NCBI GenBank assembly: GCA_964553015.1
Contig: CAZKJE010000002.1
Location: 14,175 to 78,174 of the forward strand
DNA from: an uncultured Candidatus Saccharibacteria bacterium
Lineage (GTDB): Bacteria; Patescibacteriota; Minisyncoccia; Phycocordibacterales; UBA9973
DNA: 64,000 bases
Direction: 5' to 3'
In this document: piece after piece, positions 43,324 through 60,448 of the stretch
Layout of the letters: the number at the start of each line of letters is the position of its first letter
Position numbering within the stretch: position 1 is the stretch's first letter
Position numbers and translations under genes: made by a program
Notes under the pieces: model-generated
The model's database searches: none
Told to the model about the DNA's origin: nothing
Seen by the model: only the letters and a program-made list of their open reading frames with translations

Positions 43324-43998
43324 ATGGCGAGAAAACAAGATAAACAAAGCGTTTTGGCTATGCGCAAGAGAGGAATGAGCTACAGCCAGATCAAAGGGAA
43401 AATAAAAATAAGCAAAAGCACTTTGAGTGTCTGGCTTAAAGATTTACCACTCGATGAAAAACGGATAAGAGAATTAAGAGACAATAGCCCTATTCGTATT
43501 GAAAAATTCAGAAATACAATGCGAGCAAAAAAAGAGATGAGACTTTATGAGGTATATAAAAAAGTCGCAAATGATATTTGTGATCTCTCAAAAAGAGATT
43601 TATTTTTAACAGGCTTGTTCTTATATTGGGGAGAAGGCACGAAATCACAAAATTCTTTAGTTGCCCTCACAAATACAAATCCAGCCATGGTTAAGTTTTT
43701 CATACAATGGCTAAAATTGTTTGGAGTAAAAAGCAAAGATTTGAAAATTAAACTACATTTATACTCCGATATGAAAATTAAAGAAAGTCTTGATTTTTGG
43801 TCAAAAGAGCTTAATATTCCGATAAGCCAGTTTTATAAGCCGTATGTTAAGAAAAATACTCTCAAATCTATCTCGTATAAAAATGGCTTTGGAAAAGGAA
43901 CATGTAGTGTTATATTTGGGAGTAGAGATCTTTGGGAATATATAACAATGGGATTGAAATATATTTCTGAAATTAGTAATGAAAATTTCCGCCCCTAG
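43324..43998 (+). CDS. HTH plus LAGLIDADG-like (homing-endonuclease-like) protein
   Basis: 224 aa. N-terminal resolvase-type HTH (RGMSYSQIKGKIKISKSTLSVWLK). A single LAGLIDADG-like motif (LTGLFLYWGEGTK). The last 10 nt, including the TAG stop, lie inside the tRNA gene. Confidence 0.45.
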   Translation: MARKQDKQSVLAMRKRGMSYSQIKGKIKISKSTLSVWLKDLPLDEKRIRELRDNSPIRIEKFRNTMRAKKEMRLYEVYKKVANDICDLSKRDLFLTGLFLYWGEGTKSQNSLVALTNTNPAMVKFFIQWLKLFGVKSKDLKIKLHLYSDMKIKESLDFWSKELNIPISQFYKPYVKKNTLKSISYKNGFGKGTCSVIFGSRDLWEYITMGLKYISEISNENFRP

Positions 43999-44061
43999 CT
44001 CAGTTGGTAGAGCAATCCGCTTATACCGGATCGGTCCTTGGTTCGAGTCCAAGGGGGCGGA
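43989..44061 (+). tRNA. tRNA-Ile with anticodon UAU
   Basis: Cloverleaf read by hand: acceptor CCGCCCC/GGGGCGG, D-arm GCTC-AGTTGGTA-GAGC, anticodon arm ATCCG-CTTATAC-CGGAT, variable loop CGGTC, T-arm CTTGG-TTCGAGT-CCAAG, discriminator A. CCA is not encoded. Confidence 0.8.
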
Positions 44062-44063
44062 CA

Positions 44064-53486: not shown

Positions 53487-53544
53487 TAATTATCCCCCTT
53501 TTGTCTGGCTATTGTTTTCAATCCTGTTATTATTAAGGATAGTT

Positions 53545-55965
53545 ATGAATCTCCGGCAAAACTTGTCGATTTTATTTATTCTAGCTATTTTTTCGTTTCT
53601 AGTATTTTTAGGCAGTTTCCCTTCTCTGGTTTTTGCCACTGTGTATACAGGATCTACGGGTATTGTGTACTCAGATTTTGATGAGGTTGGGTTAGGGCCT
53701 CATGGCTTTAAGGATGTAATTGCGGAATGTCCTCCCGGCATTGGGGCAGTAAACTCTTTGAAAGATAATATTACTCTCGGCAGTGCTGCTTCCTGCAGCA
53801 ATTCGTATTTTTGGTTACAAAATAACATGGCCGTGAATGGTAACAATAACGACGAGCAGATTGCGGACGGGCATTACTGTATTTATGTAAATGGTGGAAA
53901 CCAGAGTGAATGTACGCATGGAGAATTTGATATAGTAAACGGTCTTCTTGTAGGTTCGCCTTGCTTAGAAAATTGTTTCTCAAATGTGCTTTTCTTGCCG
54001 GGGCTTGAATCAAGCCGTTTGTATACCCAAAGAACTGATGGCAGCGAAGACCAGCTCTGGGAGCCAAATGGCAATAGCGATGTTGAAGACATATATTTAA
54101 ATACAGACGGCACAAGCAAAAATCCTGATATTTACACACGAGATATTATTAAAGAAACAAATACGCCATTTCCATCAGGCTCTGCCGGCCAAAATATTTA
54201 TAAAAGCTTTTCCGACACTATGAATCAGCTTGTCGATGATTTTAAAATTGCGGACTGGCAACCTTACGCCTATGACTGGCGGCAAGATGTAAATGATATT
54301 GTGAATAACGGAACAAAATATCAGGATGGCAGTAAATCTCTCATTGAAACCCTGCAGTCGCTTGTCGATTCGTCAAAAAATGGAAAGGTGACAATAGTAG
54401 CTCACAGCAACGGCGGACTTTTAGCGAAAGCTCTGCTCAAAAAATTACAGAATGATAAAGCTGCCGGAATTAATAATTTAATTGATAGTGTAGATGTGTT
54501 GATTTTAGTCGCTGTTCCGGAAATAGGGACGGCAAAATCAGTGTCAGCAATACTGCATGGATACGATCAGCAAATATTGGGAGGTCTGCTCATGAATGAA
54601 ACTCATGTGCGCGAACTCGGCAGAAATATGAACGGAGCTTACGGACTTTTGCCAAGCCGGGAATATATAAATAGAGTGAGTGCGTCGCCGGCGACTTTCG
54701 TGGATACAGCGCTTCCTTCAAATGTCACAACTTCATTTGTGCAAAAATATGGGAATGTAATAGATTCGTATGCTGAATACAAAGATTTTCTCTTTGGCGC
54801 AGAAGGCAGGACAGATCCAGCGATAAGCCAAACAAATTTACCGATTAATTTATCTCAAAATTTATTTTCAAAAGCTGAAAATTTGCACGACAGCATAGAC
54901 AACTTTACTCCACCCACAAGCTTGCGAGTGATAGAAGTAGCCGGTTGGGGCTTGGACACGGTGGCGAGTTTTGAATACTATCCGAAAAAACAACAATGCG
55001 GGCAATTGATTTGTCCTTTCACTTTAGACGAAAGACCTCGTTTTACGTCGGATGGAGATAAAACTGTTGTGGTGCCGAGTGCACATTATATGAGCCTTGG
55101 CGGGGCGGAGAAATATTGGGTAAATCTTCCATTTTATAATGATGGATTAACGAAAAATAGAGAACATAAAGATATATTGGAAGTTGATCCAATTTTGAAT
55201 TTAATATCAAGTACAATTCAGAATTTGTCGTTAGATAATTCACCTTATTTATCTTCCGCGGCACCAACAGATTCTTCAAATCGTTTTCGAATTTCAATTC
55301 ACTCGCCCGTAACCATAGATGCATACGATGAAGAAGGAAATCACACCGGGAAAATTTGTCCTCAAAATTCTGACTTCTGTTATGCAGAAGAAAATATACT
55401 AAATAGCTCATATCTTGAATTCGGAGAAGGGAAGTACATTAATCTGCCAGAAGACCAAATGGCAAAAGTCATACTTCAGGGAACCGATATTGGAACTTTT
55501 ACCTATGAATCTGAAAAAGTTTTACCCGACGAAACATCAACCACTTCTTCCTTTATAGATATTCCAGTGACGACGCAGACACAAGGAGAAATAACGCTTG
55601 ATCAAGATGGTATGCCACAACTGGCATTAGACGTGACAGGAGATGGGGTTATTGATTTCAATATTTTACCAAATACTGCTTTTGACCCTGTTTTATATTT
55701 ACAGATCATGAAAACTACCATTGATTCCCTTGATTTAAACCAAGGCCAGATCAAAGCCTTTGATAATCGGGTTGATATCATAATTAAATCCATACAAGAA
55801 GGAAAATCTGACAACACTAAACTAAAAGCAGAGATATTCAAATCTGCTATTCAAAAGACATTATCTAAACCCGATTTGAAAACTCCAAAACCCAAAAAGT
55901 TATCTAAAACAGACGCACAATTATTGCTTGATATAATGAATAAATTATTAGATAATATTAGTTAA
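53545..55965 (+). CDS. Secreted alpha/beta-hydrolase (lipase/esterase-like) protein
   Basis: Start moved to ATG 53545, giving the signal peptide MNLRQNLSILFILAIFSFLVFLGSFPSLVFA. Nucleophile elbow VAHSNGG (GxSxG-type). Confidence 0.55.
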   Translation: MNLRQNLSILFILAIFSFLVFLGSFPSLVFATVYTGSTGIVYSDFDEVGLGPHGFKDVIAECPPGIGAVNSLKDNITLGSAASCSNSYFWLQNNMAVNGNNNDEQIADGHYCIYVNGGNQSECTHGEFDIVNGLLVGSPCLENCFSNVLFLPGLESSRLYTQRTDGSEDQLWEPNGNSDVEDIYLNTDGTSKNPDIYTRDIIKETNTPFPSGSAGQNIYKSFSDTMNQLVDDFKIADWQPYAYDWRQDVNDIVNNGTKYQDGSKSLIETLQSLVDSSKNGKVTIVAHSNGGLLAKALLKKLQNDKAAGINNLIDSVDVLILVAVPEIGTAKSVSAILHGYDQQILGGLLMNETHVRELGRNMNGAYGLLPSREYINRVSASPATFVDTALPSNVTTSFVQKYGNVIDSYAEYKDFLFGAEGRTDPAISQTNLPINLSQNLFSKAENLHDSIDNFTPPTSLRVIEVAGWGLDTVASFEYYPKKQQCGQLICPFTLDERPRFTSDGDKTVVVPSAHYMSLGGAEKYWVNLPFYNDGLTKNREHKDILEVDPILNLISSTIQNLSLDNSPYLSSAAPTDSSNRFRISIHSPVTIDAYDEEGNHTGKICPQNSDFCYAEENILNSSYLEFGEGKYINLPEDQMAKVILQGTDIGTFTYESEKVLPDETSTTSSFIDIPVTTQTQGEITLDQDGMPQLALDVTGDGVIDFNILPNTAFDPVLYLQIMKTTIDSLDLNQGQIKAFDNRVDIIIKSIQEGKSDNTKLKAEIFKSAIQKTLSKPDLKTPKPKKLSKTDAQLLLDIMNKLLDNIS

Positions 55966-55966
55966 T

Positions 55967-56344
55967 ATGAAGAAAATTATTAGTTTGTCCTTGTTTATAT
56001 TATCCTTAGCAATATTCTTTTGGTTGTCATCTTATACTAATGAATGGCCATTTAATTACCATGTATCAGAATTTGTTAGCTACTTGTTTTATTGGAGTAG
56101 CGTGTTATTTATAGTAAGTCTACTAGCCTTAACTCTTAATCAAAAAAAATATAAAATTTGGCTTTTTGTAACTATTATTTATATTGCAATATCTGTTTTA
56201 ATTGCTTGGGCTACAGGAGATGGAAATGGTGCTATTGTAAGCTTTGACGGAGAATTAACTACATGGTTTTTAATAGGGTTGTATTCTTTAATTTCAATAA
56301 TTTATTTTATTGCTCAATTCTTCAAGGAAAACAAATCCAACTAA
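55967..56344 (+). CDS. Integral membrane protein, hypothetical
   Basis: 125 aa with four hydrophobic helices. Confidence 0.5.
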   Translation: MKKIISLSLFILSLAIFFWLSSYTNEWPFNYHVSEFVSYLFYWSSVLFIVSLLALTLNQKKYKIWLFVTIIYIAISVLIAWATGDGNGAIVSFDGELTTWFLIGLYSLISIIYFIAQFFKENKSN

Positions 56345-56396
56345 TTACGTAGCAAATTACGTAATTAAATAATTACATAGAGCGGCGTTAGTTTTC

Positions 56397-56600
56397 TTAG
56401 TCGTCTCCTACGTGATCGTTATGGTCTATGGGCGTGATATCGTATGGTGATTTTGGTTTTTCGCCGGGTGGCGGTGGTTCGGGAAGAATACCTATTCGTA
56501 GTTCTTCCTGTATCTCTCGGAACGGCTTTCTCTGGGGAGTTGGTTCCCATTCTTCTTGGTGGTTTTTCATGTTTTTATTATAGCACAAAAAGTTATGCAC
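56397..56600 (-). CDS. Small Pro/Glu-rich hypothetical protein
   Basis: ORF of 67 aa (or 57 aa from the internal ATG at 56570). No recognised family. Confidence 0.35.
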   Translation of the reverse strand: MHNFLCYNKNMKNHQEEWEPTPQRKPFREIQEELRIGILPEPPPPGEKPKSPYDITPIDHNDHVGDD

Positions 56601-56644
56601 TTTGGCAAGTACTTGACTTTGTTTATAGGTATATAATTATAGTG

Positions 56645-56920
56645 GAGTCAAATTGCACGCCTGAGTAGTTTGAAAGGAAATCCAAATGAGCTCTGAGTCA
56701 CGGTCACCCAATTTCCCAAGGCAGATGAAGCGGTATTGGTGGATGCGAAGGACACCACCGCCTCCATACCCCGTTCTCCGGCGCTTGCGCCTAGTGTTTC
56801 AGAACCACAACAGCGCAGTGTCACTTTCGGTCAAGGGAGTGATTCAGAGACATCTCGTGCGAGGCTAATCACTCCGCAGACCCGCGGGCACACCCGAGTG
56901 CCCGCTTCGTTTTTTCTTTT
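56645..56920 (+). ncRNA. GC-rich structured RNA or leader of unknown class upstream of ileS
   Basis: A non-coding stretch, visibly GC-richer than its flanks. It contains several strong local helices, for example GGAGTGATT/AATCACTCC and GGTGG/CCACC. It ends in the intrinsic terminator at 56884..56920. Confidence 0.3.
56884..56920 (+). terminator. Intrinsic terminator preceding the ileS promoter
   Basis: GCGGGCAC-ACCCGA-GTGCCCGC followed by TTCGTTTTTTCTTTT. Confidence 0.7.
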
Positions 56921-56947
56921 GATATATGGTATATTTTCTTTACATAT

Positions 56948-59900
56948 ATGCAGAAGCATGAAAACAATAACTCCAAATCAGAAGCAGCTTTGCGCGAAGA
57001 GCGAGTTTTGGAATTTTGGAAAGAAAATAAGATATTTAAAAAGTCGCTGGAGAAAAAATCCCCAAAGGGAGAATTTGTGTTTTATGATGGTCCAGTTACG
57101 GCAAACTCAAAGCCAGTTTTGCATACAATGCTACCTTTTTCTTTCAAAGATGTTATTCCCAGATATAAAACTATGCGCGGATATCATGTACGAAGGAAAG
57201 GCGGTTGGGATACGCATGGGCTTCCGGTAGAACTGCAAATAGAAAAAAAACTTGGGTTCAATTCAAAAGCAGATATTGAAAATTATGGTATTGCAGCTTT
57301 CAATAAATTATGTAAGGACAGTGTTTGGGAGTACGTTGGGGCATGGAAAAGTTTTACCGAACGAATGGGCTACTGGGCAGATCAAGATAATGCATATGTC
57401 ACATATTATAATAATTATATTGAATCTGTTTGGAATATAGTAAAAAAAATAAATGAGCAGAATCTGCTTTATAAAGATTACAAAGTGGTGCCGTGGTGCC
57501 CGAGGTGCGGTACAGCACTGTCTTCGCATGAGCTCGCACAGGGATACGAAGATGTAAAAGATCTGTCAGTGTATGTAAAGTTTAAGATAACTACGCCAGT
57601 GCAGGAAAATTCTGCCGCTTTACCCGCAAGCGGGCTCCGACACGGACAAAATTTTCCCGCATTGGCTCCGCAGTATATCCTCGCCTGGACGACGACGCCG
57701 TGGACCCTGCCCGGGAACGTTGCCTTAGCCGTCGGCGAAAATATTGATTATGTAAAGGTAAAGAGTGGAGAAGAGTTTTATATTCTCGCCAAAGAGAAGC
57801 TTTCAATCATAACCGAACCATATGAGATAGTGGAAGAGGTCAAGGGCGCGGGGCTAGTAGGGCTCGAATACGAGCCGTTGTATCCATATCTTGCAAATAC
57901 GGTTTCGGATACAGAAAAACCAAAATTAGAAAAGGCATACAAGGTGCACAAGGCAAACTTTGTGACCACAGATGACGGCACCGGCGTGGTGCATACGGCT
58001 GTGATGTATGGGCAAGATGACTTTATGCTCGGAACAGAAGTCGGCCTGCCGAAGCACCACCTCGTAGGTCTCGATGGCAAATTTTTAGCAGGCACAGGTA
58101 TTTTTGAAGGACGATTTGTAAAAGATGAAGAAGTCGCCGTAGATATCATTAAAGACTTGGCGCACCGCGGGCTTCTTTTCAAAAAAGAAAAATACGAGCA
58201 CTCGTATCCGCACTGCTGGCGCTGTAAAACTCCGCTCATATATTACGCGCGGGATTCTTGGTATATCCGGATGTCTGATCCTAGAATAAAAGCCGAAATG
58301 ATAAAGGAGAATAAAGAAATAAACTGGGAGCCGGAGCATATTCGCGACGGGCGGTTTGGGCAGTGGCTGGAAGAAATAAAAGACTGGGCAATATCCCGCG
58401 AACGGTACTGGGGCACGCCGCTGCCGGTCTGGGCCTGCGAAGCGTGTAAAAAAATTGAAGTAGTAGGAAGCGTAGAAGATCTAAAAAGTAGAACCAAAAA
58501 GTCTGGCAATAAATATTTTGTGATGCGGCACGGCGAGGCTGTCGATAACGCCAAGCATTTGGGTGATCCGAAAGGCGATCCAAATAATCACCTGACTGAT
58601 AAAGGGAAAAAAGAAATAATTCTTACCGCAGAAGAATTAAAAAATAAAAAAATTGATTTTATCTTTACGTCTTCTTTTCTGCGAACCAAAGAAACAGCAG
58701 AGGTCTTGAGAAAAGAACTAGGTTTGGAGCAAGAAAAAGTAATAGTTGAAGATAGATTGCATGAACACAATGAGGGAGACACTAAGCTCGTTCGCAAAAG
58801 GATGGCCGACTTTATTTATGAAATAGAAAAAAATTACGAAAATAAAAATATCTTAATAATTTCGCACGGAAATCCTATCTGGATCCTGCAGAAAACCGCT
58901 TTGGGCTTGTCTATAAATAATTTTACAGAAGGCGAGATGCTGCATACCGGCGAAGTCAAAGAATTAGATTTTATACCGCTACCGCATAATGAAAATTATG
59001 AGCTTGATCTGCACAAGCCTTATATAGATGAAATAAATCTTGTTTGTTCATGTGGTGGAAAATTAACACGCACGAAAGAAGTCATGGACGTGTGGTTTGA
59101 TTCGGGAGGCATGTCTTTTGCGCAGGATCATTACCCTTTCGATAACGCTTCCGGTAAATCTTTTGACGGCAAAGAACTTTTATATCCGGCGGATTTTATT
59201 TCAGAGGGCATAGATCAGACGCGCGGATGGTTTTACACCTTGCATGCTGTTGGAATTCTCTTGGGGCGGGGCAAGGCTTACAAAAACGTAATCTGCCTTG
59301 GCCATCTTCTCGACGCTAAGGGCAAAAAAATGTCCAAATCTCTCGGCAACGTCGTCGAGCCGTTTCTTGCGATGGATACATATGGCGTGGATACTTTGCG
59401 TTTGTGGATGTATTCCATAAATCAGCCGGGCGAATCCAAGAATTTTGATGAGAAAACAGTAGCGCTTCTTTCTCAGCAGATTTTTGGCTTGCTTTACAAT
59501 GTGCTTGCGTTTTATGAACTTTATCGCGATGTTTCGCTAGAGCCTAGAGCCTATGGCCTAAAGCCCAGCAATATTTTAGATAAATGGATCTTGGCGCGTC
59601 TAGATGAGTTGACAGAGCTTGCAACCAAAAATTTAGATAACTACAAATTGCTGGAGCCAGTGCGGGGCATGAGAGACTTTATCGGCGATCTTTCTACTTG
59701 GTATTTGCGCCGTTCGCGCGACAGGATAAAATCCTCCTCCGCACAAGGCTCCGGTGGAACAAGGGAAGGAGATGAAGCGAAGGAAACTCTGTACTATGTG
59801 CTAAAAACCTTGGCAAAACTCATGGCTCCGCTCGCGCCGTTTGCCGCTGAAGACATCTGGCTTAAGTTAAAAAATGAAGATGATGAAGAAAGCGTGCATT

Positions 59901-60448
59901 TGGCGAGCTGGCCGGAAGTAAAAAAGACATCTTTTATCTCCAAGTTGCTTAAAAATGATCCAAGCAAAAAAATAATTGAAAATATGGAGAGCGTCAGAAG
60001 AGTAGTCACACTCGGACTCGAAGCTCGACAGAAAACCGGAATAAAAGTCCGCCAGCCTCTTAATCAATTACGAATTAAAAATTACGAATTAGGAATTGAG
60101 TATGCAGACTTGATTAGAGAAGAGCTGAATGTCAGAGAAGTTATTTTTGATAATTCTATTGAAGGCGAGGTGTGGCTCGATATAAGAATAAACGAAGAGC
60201 TCAAAGCTGAAGGGGATTACAGGGAGTTTGTCCGCGCGCTGCAGGATATGAGAAAGAAAACCGGACTGACGCCGAGCGACGTGGTCTCTGTTACTTTTGA
60301 AACAAACAAAGCAGGCAAGGAACTTATTAAAAAATTCGAAGCTGAAATGAAAAAAACAGTGCTTGTCTCTACGATAGAATTTTCGGAAAATGAAGGAGAA
60401 AAAATAAAAATCGACAATCTTCACTTCAGGATAAAAATTGATAAATAA
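56948..60448 (+). CDS. ileS: Isoleucine--tRNA ligase with a nested histidine-phosphatase domain
   Basis: 1166 aa. IleRS hallmarks: WDTHGLPVE, editing-domain [10 protein letters not shown] and [13 protein letters not shown], KMSKS. An extra domain of about 163 aa lies at residues 522-684. Confidence 0.9.
   Translation: [1166 protein letters not shown]
58511..58999 (+). other. Histidine-phosphatase (PGAM-like) domain inserted within ileS
   Basis: Ordered motifs [43 protein letters not shown] and LIISHGNPI. Flanked by IleRS CxxC (ACEACKK) and CxC (VCSCGG) segments. Confidence 0.75.

Follow-up and report, generated by a model that had tools for sequence, protein, structure and literature searches.

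The ileS locus and its neighbouring genes

The window, by which we mean the whole 64,000-nt stretch of DNA that was analysed, derives from a Patescibacterium of Paceibacteria/Nomurabacteria-like type, and the best relatives of its IleS were found in MAGs of Candidatus Nomurabacteria, Paceibacterota and Minisyncoccia. When IleS was compared with approximately 15 billion proteins, the sole 100% match was the source contig itself and the next best match had just 71% identity, indicating a lineage without close sequenced relatives. Exact-sequence look-ups of IleS and of the small protein p67, described below, returned no record. Housekeeping genes precede p817 (RNR, PduO-type adenosyltransferase, recG, tmk, dut, argS), and the order continues with p817 itself, which encodes an LCAT-like hydrolase, p125, an intergenic region of 600 bp, ileS, and the genes of a HAD hydrolase, an MBL-fold protein and recO. 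The small membrane protein encoded by p125 (positions 55967 to 56344, + strand) is 125 aa long, and its gene, a conserved neighbour, served as the synteny anchor. The downstream gene ileS (56948 to 60448, +), which lies outside the RNA unit considered here, encodes 1166 aa. Residues ~524-611 of IleS are an inserted histidine-phosphatase domain (His_Phos_1, PF00300); the insertion was present in all 120 best IleS homologs, some of which also had an HD domain (PF01966), and on this comparison it is a clade-wide trait, not one special to the source genome. The window also carries a tRNA-Ile gene (43989-44062, +) with the anticodon UAU, the discriminator base A73 and no encoded CCA, which suggests that AUA is decoded by a UAU tRNA and not by a lysidine-modified CAU tRNA.

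Shine-Dalgarno sequences are almost absent from the genome. Many of its genes have an extended −10 element (TGnTAnAAT or GGTATAWW) 6-7 nt ahead of the start codon, a spacing that implies widespread leaderless mRNAs; sites of this type are found, for example, at 22732, 30714, 32376, 50549, 61050 and 62299 on the + strand and at 56585, 30708 and 50226 on the − strand. There are six GGTATAWW sites on the + strand of the window, two of them directly before tmk and ileS. To all appearances, both motifs are working promoters of the source genome. The extended −10 of ileS, TGGTATATT, lies at 56927-35 (+), 12 nt before the ATG and downstream of the terminator described below, and an identical TGGTATATT element precedes the ATG of tmk by 6 nt. 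In the relatives that have the most similar IleS and no T-box (L001, L012, L045, L062 and L082; also L033), TGCTAAAAT was found 9 nt before the ATG. The ileS element spans the junction of a 17-nt tandem repeat, TTTTCTTT[TG/AC]ATATATG, with two copies 22 nt apart (56912-28 and 56934-50, +), the second of which ends in the ileS ATG. The repeat may go back to a small duplication that gave ileS its present promoter.

Between p125 and ileS lies p67 (56397 to 56570, −; MKNHQEEWEPTPQRKPF...), an orphan ORF of 57 aa that is divergent from the segment under study, the two standing head-to-head ~70 bp apart. Its codon score of +0.20 per codon is gene-like (GC1/2/3 0.66/0.36/0.41), and it was also called by the gene caller on an independent Logan contig, L138. 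The product is acidic and proline-rich. The ATG at 56570 is preceded at 6 nt by an extended −10 promoter of the leaderless type, TGCTATAAT (56577 to 56585, −), a perfect TGTGCTATAAT; at least seven other genes of the window have the same motif and spacing. Neither a homolog nor a family of p67 was found among 5.8 billion protein clusters or in Pfam, PHROGs and PADLOC. A perfect 10-bp AT-rich palindrome, TAATTACGTA / TACGTAATTA, is situated between the convergent p125 and p67 (56342-56367) and is possibly a bidirectional terminator, though it has no clear U-run.

The p817-p125 pair (53512-56344) is kept as such in relatives, as seen from a comparison with L139-L146, L033, L068 and L073. In DNA sequence, L139 and L140 each share ~74% identity with the window over p817-p125, and the similarity ends exactly at the p125 stop codon. 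Downstream of p125 we found a PhdYeFM antitoxin gene and a HATPase gene in L139, genes of no assigned function in L140, MazE in L141, DpnI in L142, a trypsin-like gene in L144, pilin genes in L146, and a T-box followed by ileS in L068 and L143. Compared in this way, the position after p817-p125 is a variable slot, with p67 and the segment as its apparent cargo in the source lineage.

Composition, signals and folding of the segment

The segment (56645-56920, 276 nt) has a GC content of 54% and reaches 61% in its richest 150 nt, where the window as a whole averages 41.6%. It falls at the 98th-99.9th percentile of the window and is the sole non-coding GC outlier in the 64 kb, all equally GC-rich stretches elsewhere lying within long ORFs. 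A codon model was trained on 12 genes of the window that have Pfam support, and by this model the log-odds of the segment were below zero in all six frames; a 60-aa ORF at 56686-56868 scored −0.22 per codon with a GC3 of 0.62, compared with +0.20 to +0.35 per codon for real genes. The GC-rich body of the candidate RNA (~240 nt, 56643 to 56883, +) is thus a compositional outlier with no coding signal.

At its 3' end the segment has an intrinsic terminator (56884 to 56919, +), a G+C-rich hairpin formed by GCGGGCAC (56884-91) and GUGCCCGC (56898-905) around a 6-nt loop and directly followed by the U-run of TTCGTTTTTTCTTTT. The stem consists of 8 bp, 7 of them G-C, with a folding energy of −17.6 kcal/mol; the terminator is one-directional and stands 33 nt before the ileS ATG. 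At the 5' end, a motif scan detected a promoter-like region (56613 to 56641, +) with TTGACT at 56613-18 and a −10 of the host type, GGTATATA, at 56628-35. No ORF lies behind this −10. The scan reported TTGACT-16-AATTAT, and the spacing of −35 and −10 is poor. We infer a candidate transcription start at ~56642-56644. A GTG at 56642, 6 nt past the GGTATATA −10 and hence at the leaderless spacing of this genome, opens an 8-codon ORF (VESNCTPE*) that runs to 56668 and holds no Ile codon; the spacing is probably a coincidence.

The folding z-score of the segment with its terminator was −2.5 on the + strand versus −1.5 on the − strand. For the body without the terminator the values were −1.5 and −0.5, respectively, which is near shuffled sequence. 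A perfect 9-bp hairpin is formed by GGAGUGAUU and AAUCACUCC (56836-44 / 56867-75, +); a perfect stem of this length arises in 3% of dinucleotide shuffles (P = 0.03), and the 5' arm (56836-44) has an alternative partner, CUCUGAGUCAC, at 56691-56701. The T-box-like string UUGGUGGAUGCG is held in a GGUGG/CCACC hairpin (56738-42 / 56755-59, +). A 4-bp UUUG/CAAA hairpin with the loop AAAGGAAAUC (56669-72 / 56683-86, +), earlier seen as a 'specifier-like' element, is missing from the MFE and centroid folds, in which UUUGA sits in another hairpin of 9 bp at the 5' end (56648-56 / 56665-73). A preliminary description of this DNA had noted a G+C content much above that of the flanks, no convincing ORF on the + strand and a strong terminator, and had named a number of strings; the figures given above agree with all of this, and every string is present where it had been placed. 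It had also spoken of strong helices, of which the sequences are indeed there, but a strong structure beyond chance is not, the body having z = −1.5.

Searches with 56345-56947 (blastn, nhmmer and tblastx) against 146 related loci (1.69 Mb) and the window itself returned nothing, and the segment is absent even from the relatives that are ~74% identical in flanking genes. Phage and plasmid collections contained no homolog of it, and three exact-pattern scans of viral contigs gave just two chance 17-mers. With no homolog in the 146 loci or in the phage and plasmid records, the conservation and covariation in independent lineages that define an sRNA family were not observed. At the protein level, p67 and p60, searched as a concatenate, had no match among 5.8 billion protein clusters, an open frame of 83 aa had one spurious match, a repeat-rich T/S/A protein, among 1.84 billion representatives, and Pfam, PHROGs and PADLOC yielded nothing for the small ORFs. 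Duplexes of the candidate sRNA with the 5' ends of ileS, p67, p125, argS and tmk were no better than those of shuffles. Flanking direct or inverted repeats, as marks of a mobile element, were limited to short AT-rich matches at chance level, and ARAGORN detected no tRNA-like element in the segment.

Further candidates were rejected. SRP RNA, RNase P RNA and 6S RNA, considered because the string CCAAGGCAGAUGA resembles E. coli 4.5S, had no Rfam match and no domain IV motif was seen. An assembly artefact or chimeric join is contradicted by the Logan contig L138, which is 100% identical over 1806 nt.

Comparison with the ileS T-boxes of relatives

T-box control of ileS, the relevance of which had been raised in the preliminary description, does occur in this clade: an ileS T-box was found in 11/61 related Patescibacterial species (~1/5). 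In two of them the gene upstream is again p125: in L068 and likewise in L143 the leader lies between the p125 homolog and ileS. Examples of these leaders, which are of the RF00230 type, are L068:614-783, L143:1584-1757, L051:9656-9851 and L087:657-861. Their Stem I is ultrashort (GGGG/CCCC, with nnAUCA as the terminal loop) and is joined by a Stem II that has an S-turn, an optional IIA/B pseudoknot and the invariant GGUGGUACCACG; a terminator helix of ~20 bp followed by a U-run ends the leader; the ATG comes 0-10 nt later in L068, L087 and L143. Their GC content is 35-52%. Both sides were changed in 20/35 pairs, and 96% of cells were paired, versus ~40% when the partners were slid, so that the predicted T-boxes of the relatives are well supported by covariation. 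Transcriptional T-boxes generally need a long Stem I with a tRNA-elbow-binding platform for fast tRNA capture, and the ultrashort form characterises T-boxes that act on translation, most of them from actinobacteria (PMC7583486). The combination of an ultrashort Stem I and an intrinsic terminator in one T-box is not described in that review. A literature search that combined T-box, riboswitch and Patescibacteria found no paper on T-boxes in Patescibacteria. These T-boxes seem more interesting than the segment itself.

The segment resembles the T-boxes of the relatives in several respects. It is placed as a same-strand 5' leader of an aminoacyl-tRNA synthetase gene, directly upstream of ileS on the + strand, and, like them, lies between p125 and ileS; it has the same promoter-to-terminator layout, a GC content above that of its flanks and a terminator near the start codon; and the strings GAA-AUC, UGAGC and GGUGG are common to both. 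It is somewhat longer, ~270 nt versus 155-240 nt.

A profile HMM and a covariance model, R1, were built from 21 distinct ileS T-box leaders of the relatives. R1 gave 108-187 bits on its members and 144.7 bits on the unseen L143, and the Rfam T-box model gave 69.5 bits (E = 8e-15) on the L068 leader. Rfam was run on the whole window at the gathering score and on the region 56300-57050 at E ≤ 10; the first returned just tmRNA and one tRNA and the second nothing real, leaving the segment unmatched by RF00230 or any other family. The clade HMM found nothing in the segment alone even at E ≤ 1000. With all filters off, R1 gave the segment at most 0.8 bits, from the terminator hairpin alone; no part of the segment aligned to model positions 41-100 and there was no partial Stem I match. 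Placed in the T-box alignment, the segment scored 35/71 conserved columns, as did shuffles (34.4 ± 3.7), whereas a true T-box scored 69. A comparison of the ileS upstream regions across relatives also showed that the segment is not conserved.

The individual elements gave the same picture. No Stem I with specifier, purine and K-turn (UGA...GAG) was found: the AUC at 56679-81 is followed by C, not by the conserved purine, the 4-bp GGGG/CCCC helix of the relatives has no counterpart (AGGA vs CAAA), and the UUUG/CAAA stem would use up the K-turn bases. The S-turn of Stem II, conserved in the clade as AGUAGAAC, is also lacking, and the sole AGUAG (56664-68) stands 5' of the Stem I-like string, which is the wrong order. 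As for the conserved T-box with its UGGN bulge, the invariant GGUGGUACCACG / AAGGUGGUACCACG of the relatives is absent from the segment, and the UUGGUGGAUGCG that it has instead is sequestered in the GGUGG/CCACC hairpin. The UGGA of the segment would mismatch A73 of the tRNA-Ile(UAU) of the window (43989-44062); the GAU isoacceptor is outside the window. The T-box-like string lies ~140 nt upstream of the terminator, and the terminator 5' arm pairs with its best upstream partner at −15.7 kcal/mol, whereas shuffles reach a stronger −19.6 kcal/mol on average. No antiterminator and terminator helices competing for one strand, such as overlap in the relatives, were found, in line with the earlier remark that a canonical antiterminator cannot be drawn. 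The terminator is unrelated in sequence to the highly conserved T-box terminator of the relatives, and, unlike in their T-box arrangement, a promoter dedicated to ileS follows the segment.

T-box identity was rejected on the missing Rfam, HMM and R1 matches, the missing antiterminator, the C after AUC, the UGGA mismatch and the downstream position of the ileS promoter; as far as its sequence can be read, the segment is not a T-box. The T-box-like fragments pointed out previously are present as strings, but they do not make up a T-box match. An ordered motif composed post hoc, TGAA..ATC..GAGC..GGTGG, occurs once in 128 kb (both strands), exactly at the segment, and in 3.3 Mb of loci it was found at 15 true T-boxes and 4 background sites; it is a weak hint of T-box ancestry at most. 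The main value of the segment is a negative one: no T-box should be annotated upstream of ileS, however tempting.

Possible nature of the segment

The preliminary description had left three options, an Ile-responsive leader of the T-box kind, an independent sRNA and a degenerate fragment. The first fails by the Rfam result and the lack of conservation, and the other two are the best readings left. Our hypothesis, held tentatively and with slightly less than an even chance, is that the segment forms a non-coding transcription unit of its own, specific to the lineage, a candidate sRNA gene whose constitutive terminator insulates ileS. According to this hypothesis, an RNA of ~270 nt would start near 56643 from the host-type −10 GGTATATA and end at the constitutive intrinsic terminator at 56884-56919. 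The terminator would stop the segment's own transcript and insulate ileS, so that the segment would not gate ileS; transcription of ileS would depend on the extended −10 found 12 nt ahead of its ATG, an arrangement shared with the closest T-box-less relatives. The candidate RNA and the orphan leaderless p67 would share the slot after the LCAT-like/p125 pair. Both the transcription of the unit and a function of its RNA are inferred here; by default, we would guess at an sRNA that is linked to p67 and acts in trans or binds a protein.

Several observations argue for such a unit: the segment is the sole non-coding GC outlier, has no coding frame, ends in a strong terminator with no antiterminator, and folds better on the + strand; the GGTATATA −10 has no ORF, ileS has its own promoter, L138 contains an exact copy, and similarity to relatives is lost at the p125 stop. 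Against it stand the lack of conservation, the marginal folding of the body (z = −1.5), the poor −35/−10 spacing and the lack of complementarity to targets, as well as the leader-like position on the same strand as ileS and the T-box found there in two p125-bearing relatives. Orphan small-RNA genes form a general class of candidates that GC-vs-length screens of intergenic regions pick out in AT-rich genomes: GC-rich stretches between genes, with a promoter at one end and an intrinsic terminator at the other. The segment is like them in being a non-coding compositional outlier with a host-type promoter and a Rho-independent terminator, a putative unit of its own between protein genes. Candidates for sRNAs are normally accepted only with conservation and covariation; unlike those accepted, the segment is not conserved and its body folds barely better than shuffled sequence. 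It may also be likened to the insulating terminators that precede housekeeping genes, since a strong one-directional hairpin with a U-run stands before an independently promoted essential gene, but a plain insulating terminator would leave 240 nt of GC-rich non-coding sequence and a promoter-like element unexplained.

A less probable explanation, unlikely on balance yet a serious one, is that the segment is an inert remnant. It could be foreign DNA of recent arrival, or else an old ileS leader, perhaps of T-box descent, that fell out of use once a 22-nt duplication had made a new ileS promoter; its terminator alone would still matter, as an insulator. Such a remnant would be expected to be an orphan with no conservation and a body that folds near chance, as is the case here, and the slot is known to vary, holding PhdYeFM, MazE or DpnI cargo in relatives and the order p125 - T-box - ileS in two p125-bearing ones. 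The first copy of the tandem repeat (56912-56950) would put an ATG ~10 nt past the T-run, as in the T-box loci L068, L087 and L143, and the post-hoc motif has its only site of the window exactly at the segment. As a T-box relic, however, the segment is contradicted by the HMM (no match), by the covariance model (≤0.8 bits), by an alignment score within that of shuffles (35/71 columns vs 34.4 ± 3.7) and by a terminator whose sequence is unrelated to the conserved one. Moreover, in a streamlined, AT-rich genome one would expect decay to lower the GC content of a relic and to lead to its loss, but the segment has 54-61% GC against 35-52% for functional T-boxes, and both its promoter, of the host type, and its perfect terminator are still there.

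The idea of a working leader that controls ileS in cis, whether as a very atypical T-box or as a new attenuator responsive to Ile, tRNA-Ile or IleRS with regulated read-through, is improbable. The position directly upstream of ileS on the same strand, with a terminator 33 nt before the ATG, would suit it, as would the T-box control of ileS in ~18% of related species (11/61), the presence of GAA-AUC, UGAGC and GGUGG in T-box order and the alternative pairings available to GGGAGUGAUUCAGAG. It is opposed by the lack of a T-box match with Rfam or with the clade model, even though the latter gives ~145 bits on the unseen L143, by the ~140 nt between the T-box-like string and the terminator with no antiterminator beyond chance, by the UGGA vs A73 mismatch and the C in the purine's place after AUC, by the separate ileS promoter downstream of the terminator, and by the absence of the segment from every relative compared.

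A related idea, which we hold to be very doubtful, is that of a functional lineage-specific RNA in the T-box's place, acting either as a new non-T-box attenuator for Ile, tRNA-Ile or IleRS or as the RNA partner of p67 in a new RNA-protein accessory module of a toxin-antitoxin- or defence-like kind. The module would fit the slot, where relatives hold PhdYeFM, MazE and DpnI genes. Least plausible is a small basic protein encoded by the 60-aa ORF (56686-56868), whose start follows an SD-like AAAGGAAAU at 7 nt and to which the terminator would belong: promoter, SD-like motif, ORF, stop and a terminator 16 nt later make a tidy series, but the codon score (−0.22 per codon) and GC3 (0.62) are unlike those of any gene of the window, SD sequences are hardly used in the genome, the gene caller did not call the ORF on L138, and searches of 5.8 billion clusters and of Pfam, PHROGs and PADLOC gave neither a homolog nor a family for it.

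As a single-genome orphan of an uncultured organism with no conservation, the segment itself matters little. In the clade as a whole, ileS is preceded by a T-box leader, by a bare short-leader promoter or, here, by an orphan unit, and these three states make the clade a natural series for the gain and loss of T-box control. In the T-box-less L001 (9960-9995), L045, L062, L082 and L012, a conserved TTTTRTGCTAAAAT-CAGCCAATA-ATGGCTG is found ~45 nt after argS, just upstream of ileS, and a CAGCCA/UGGCUG hairpin could form around the ileS start codon in these relatives.
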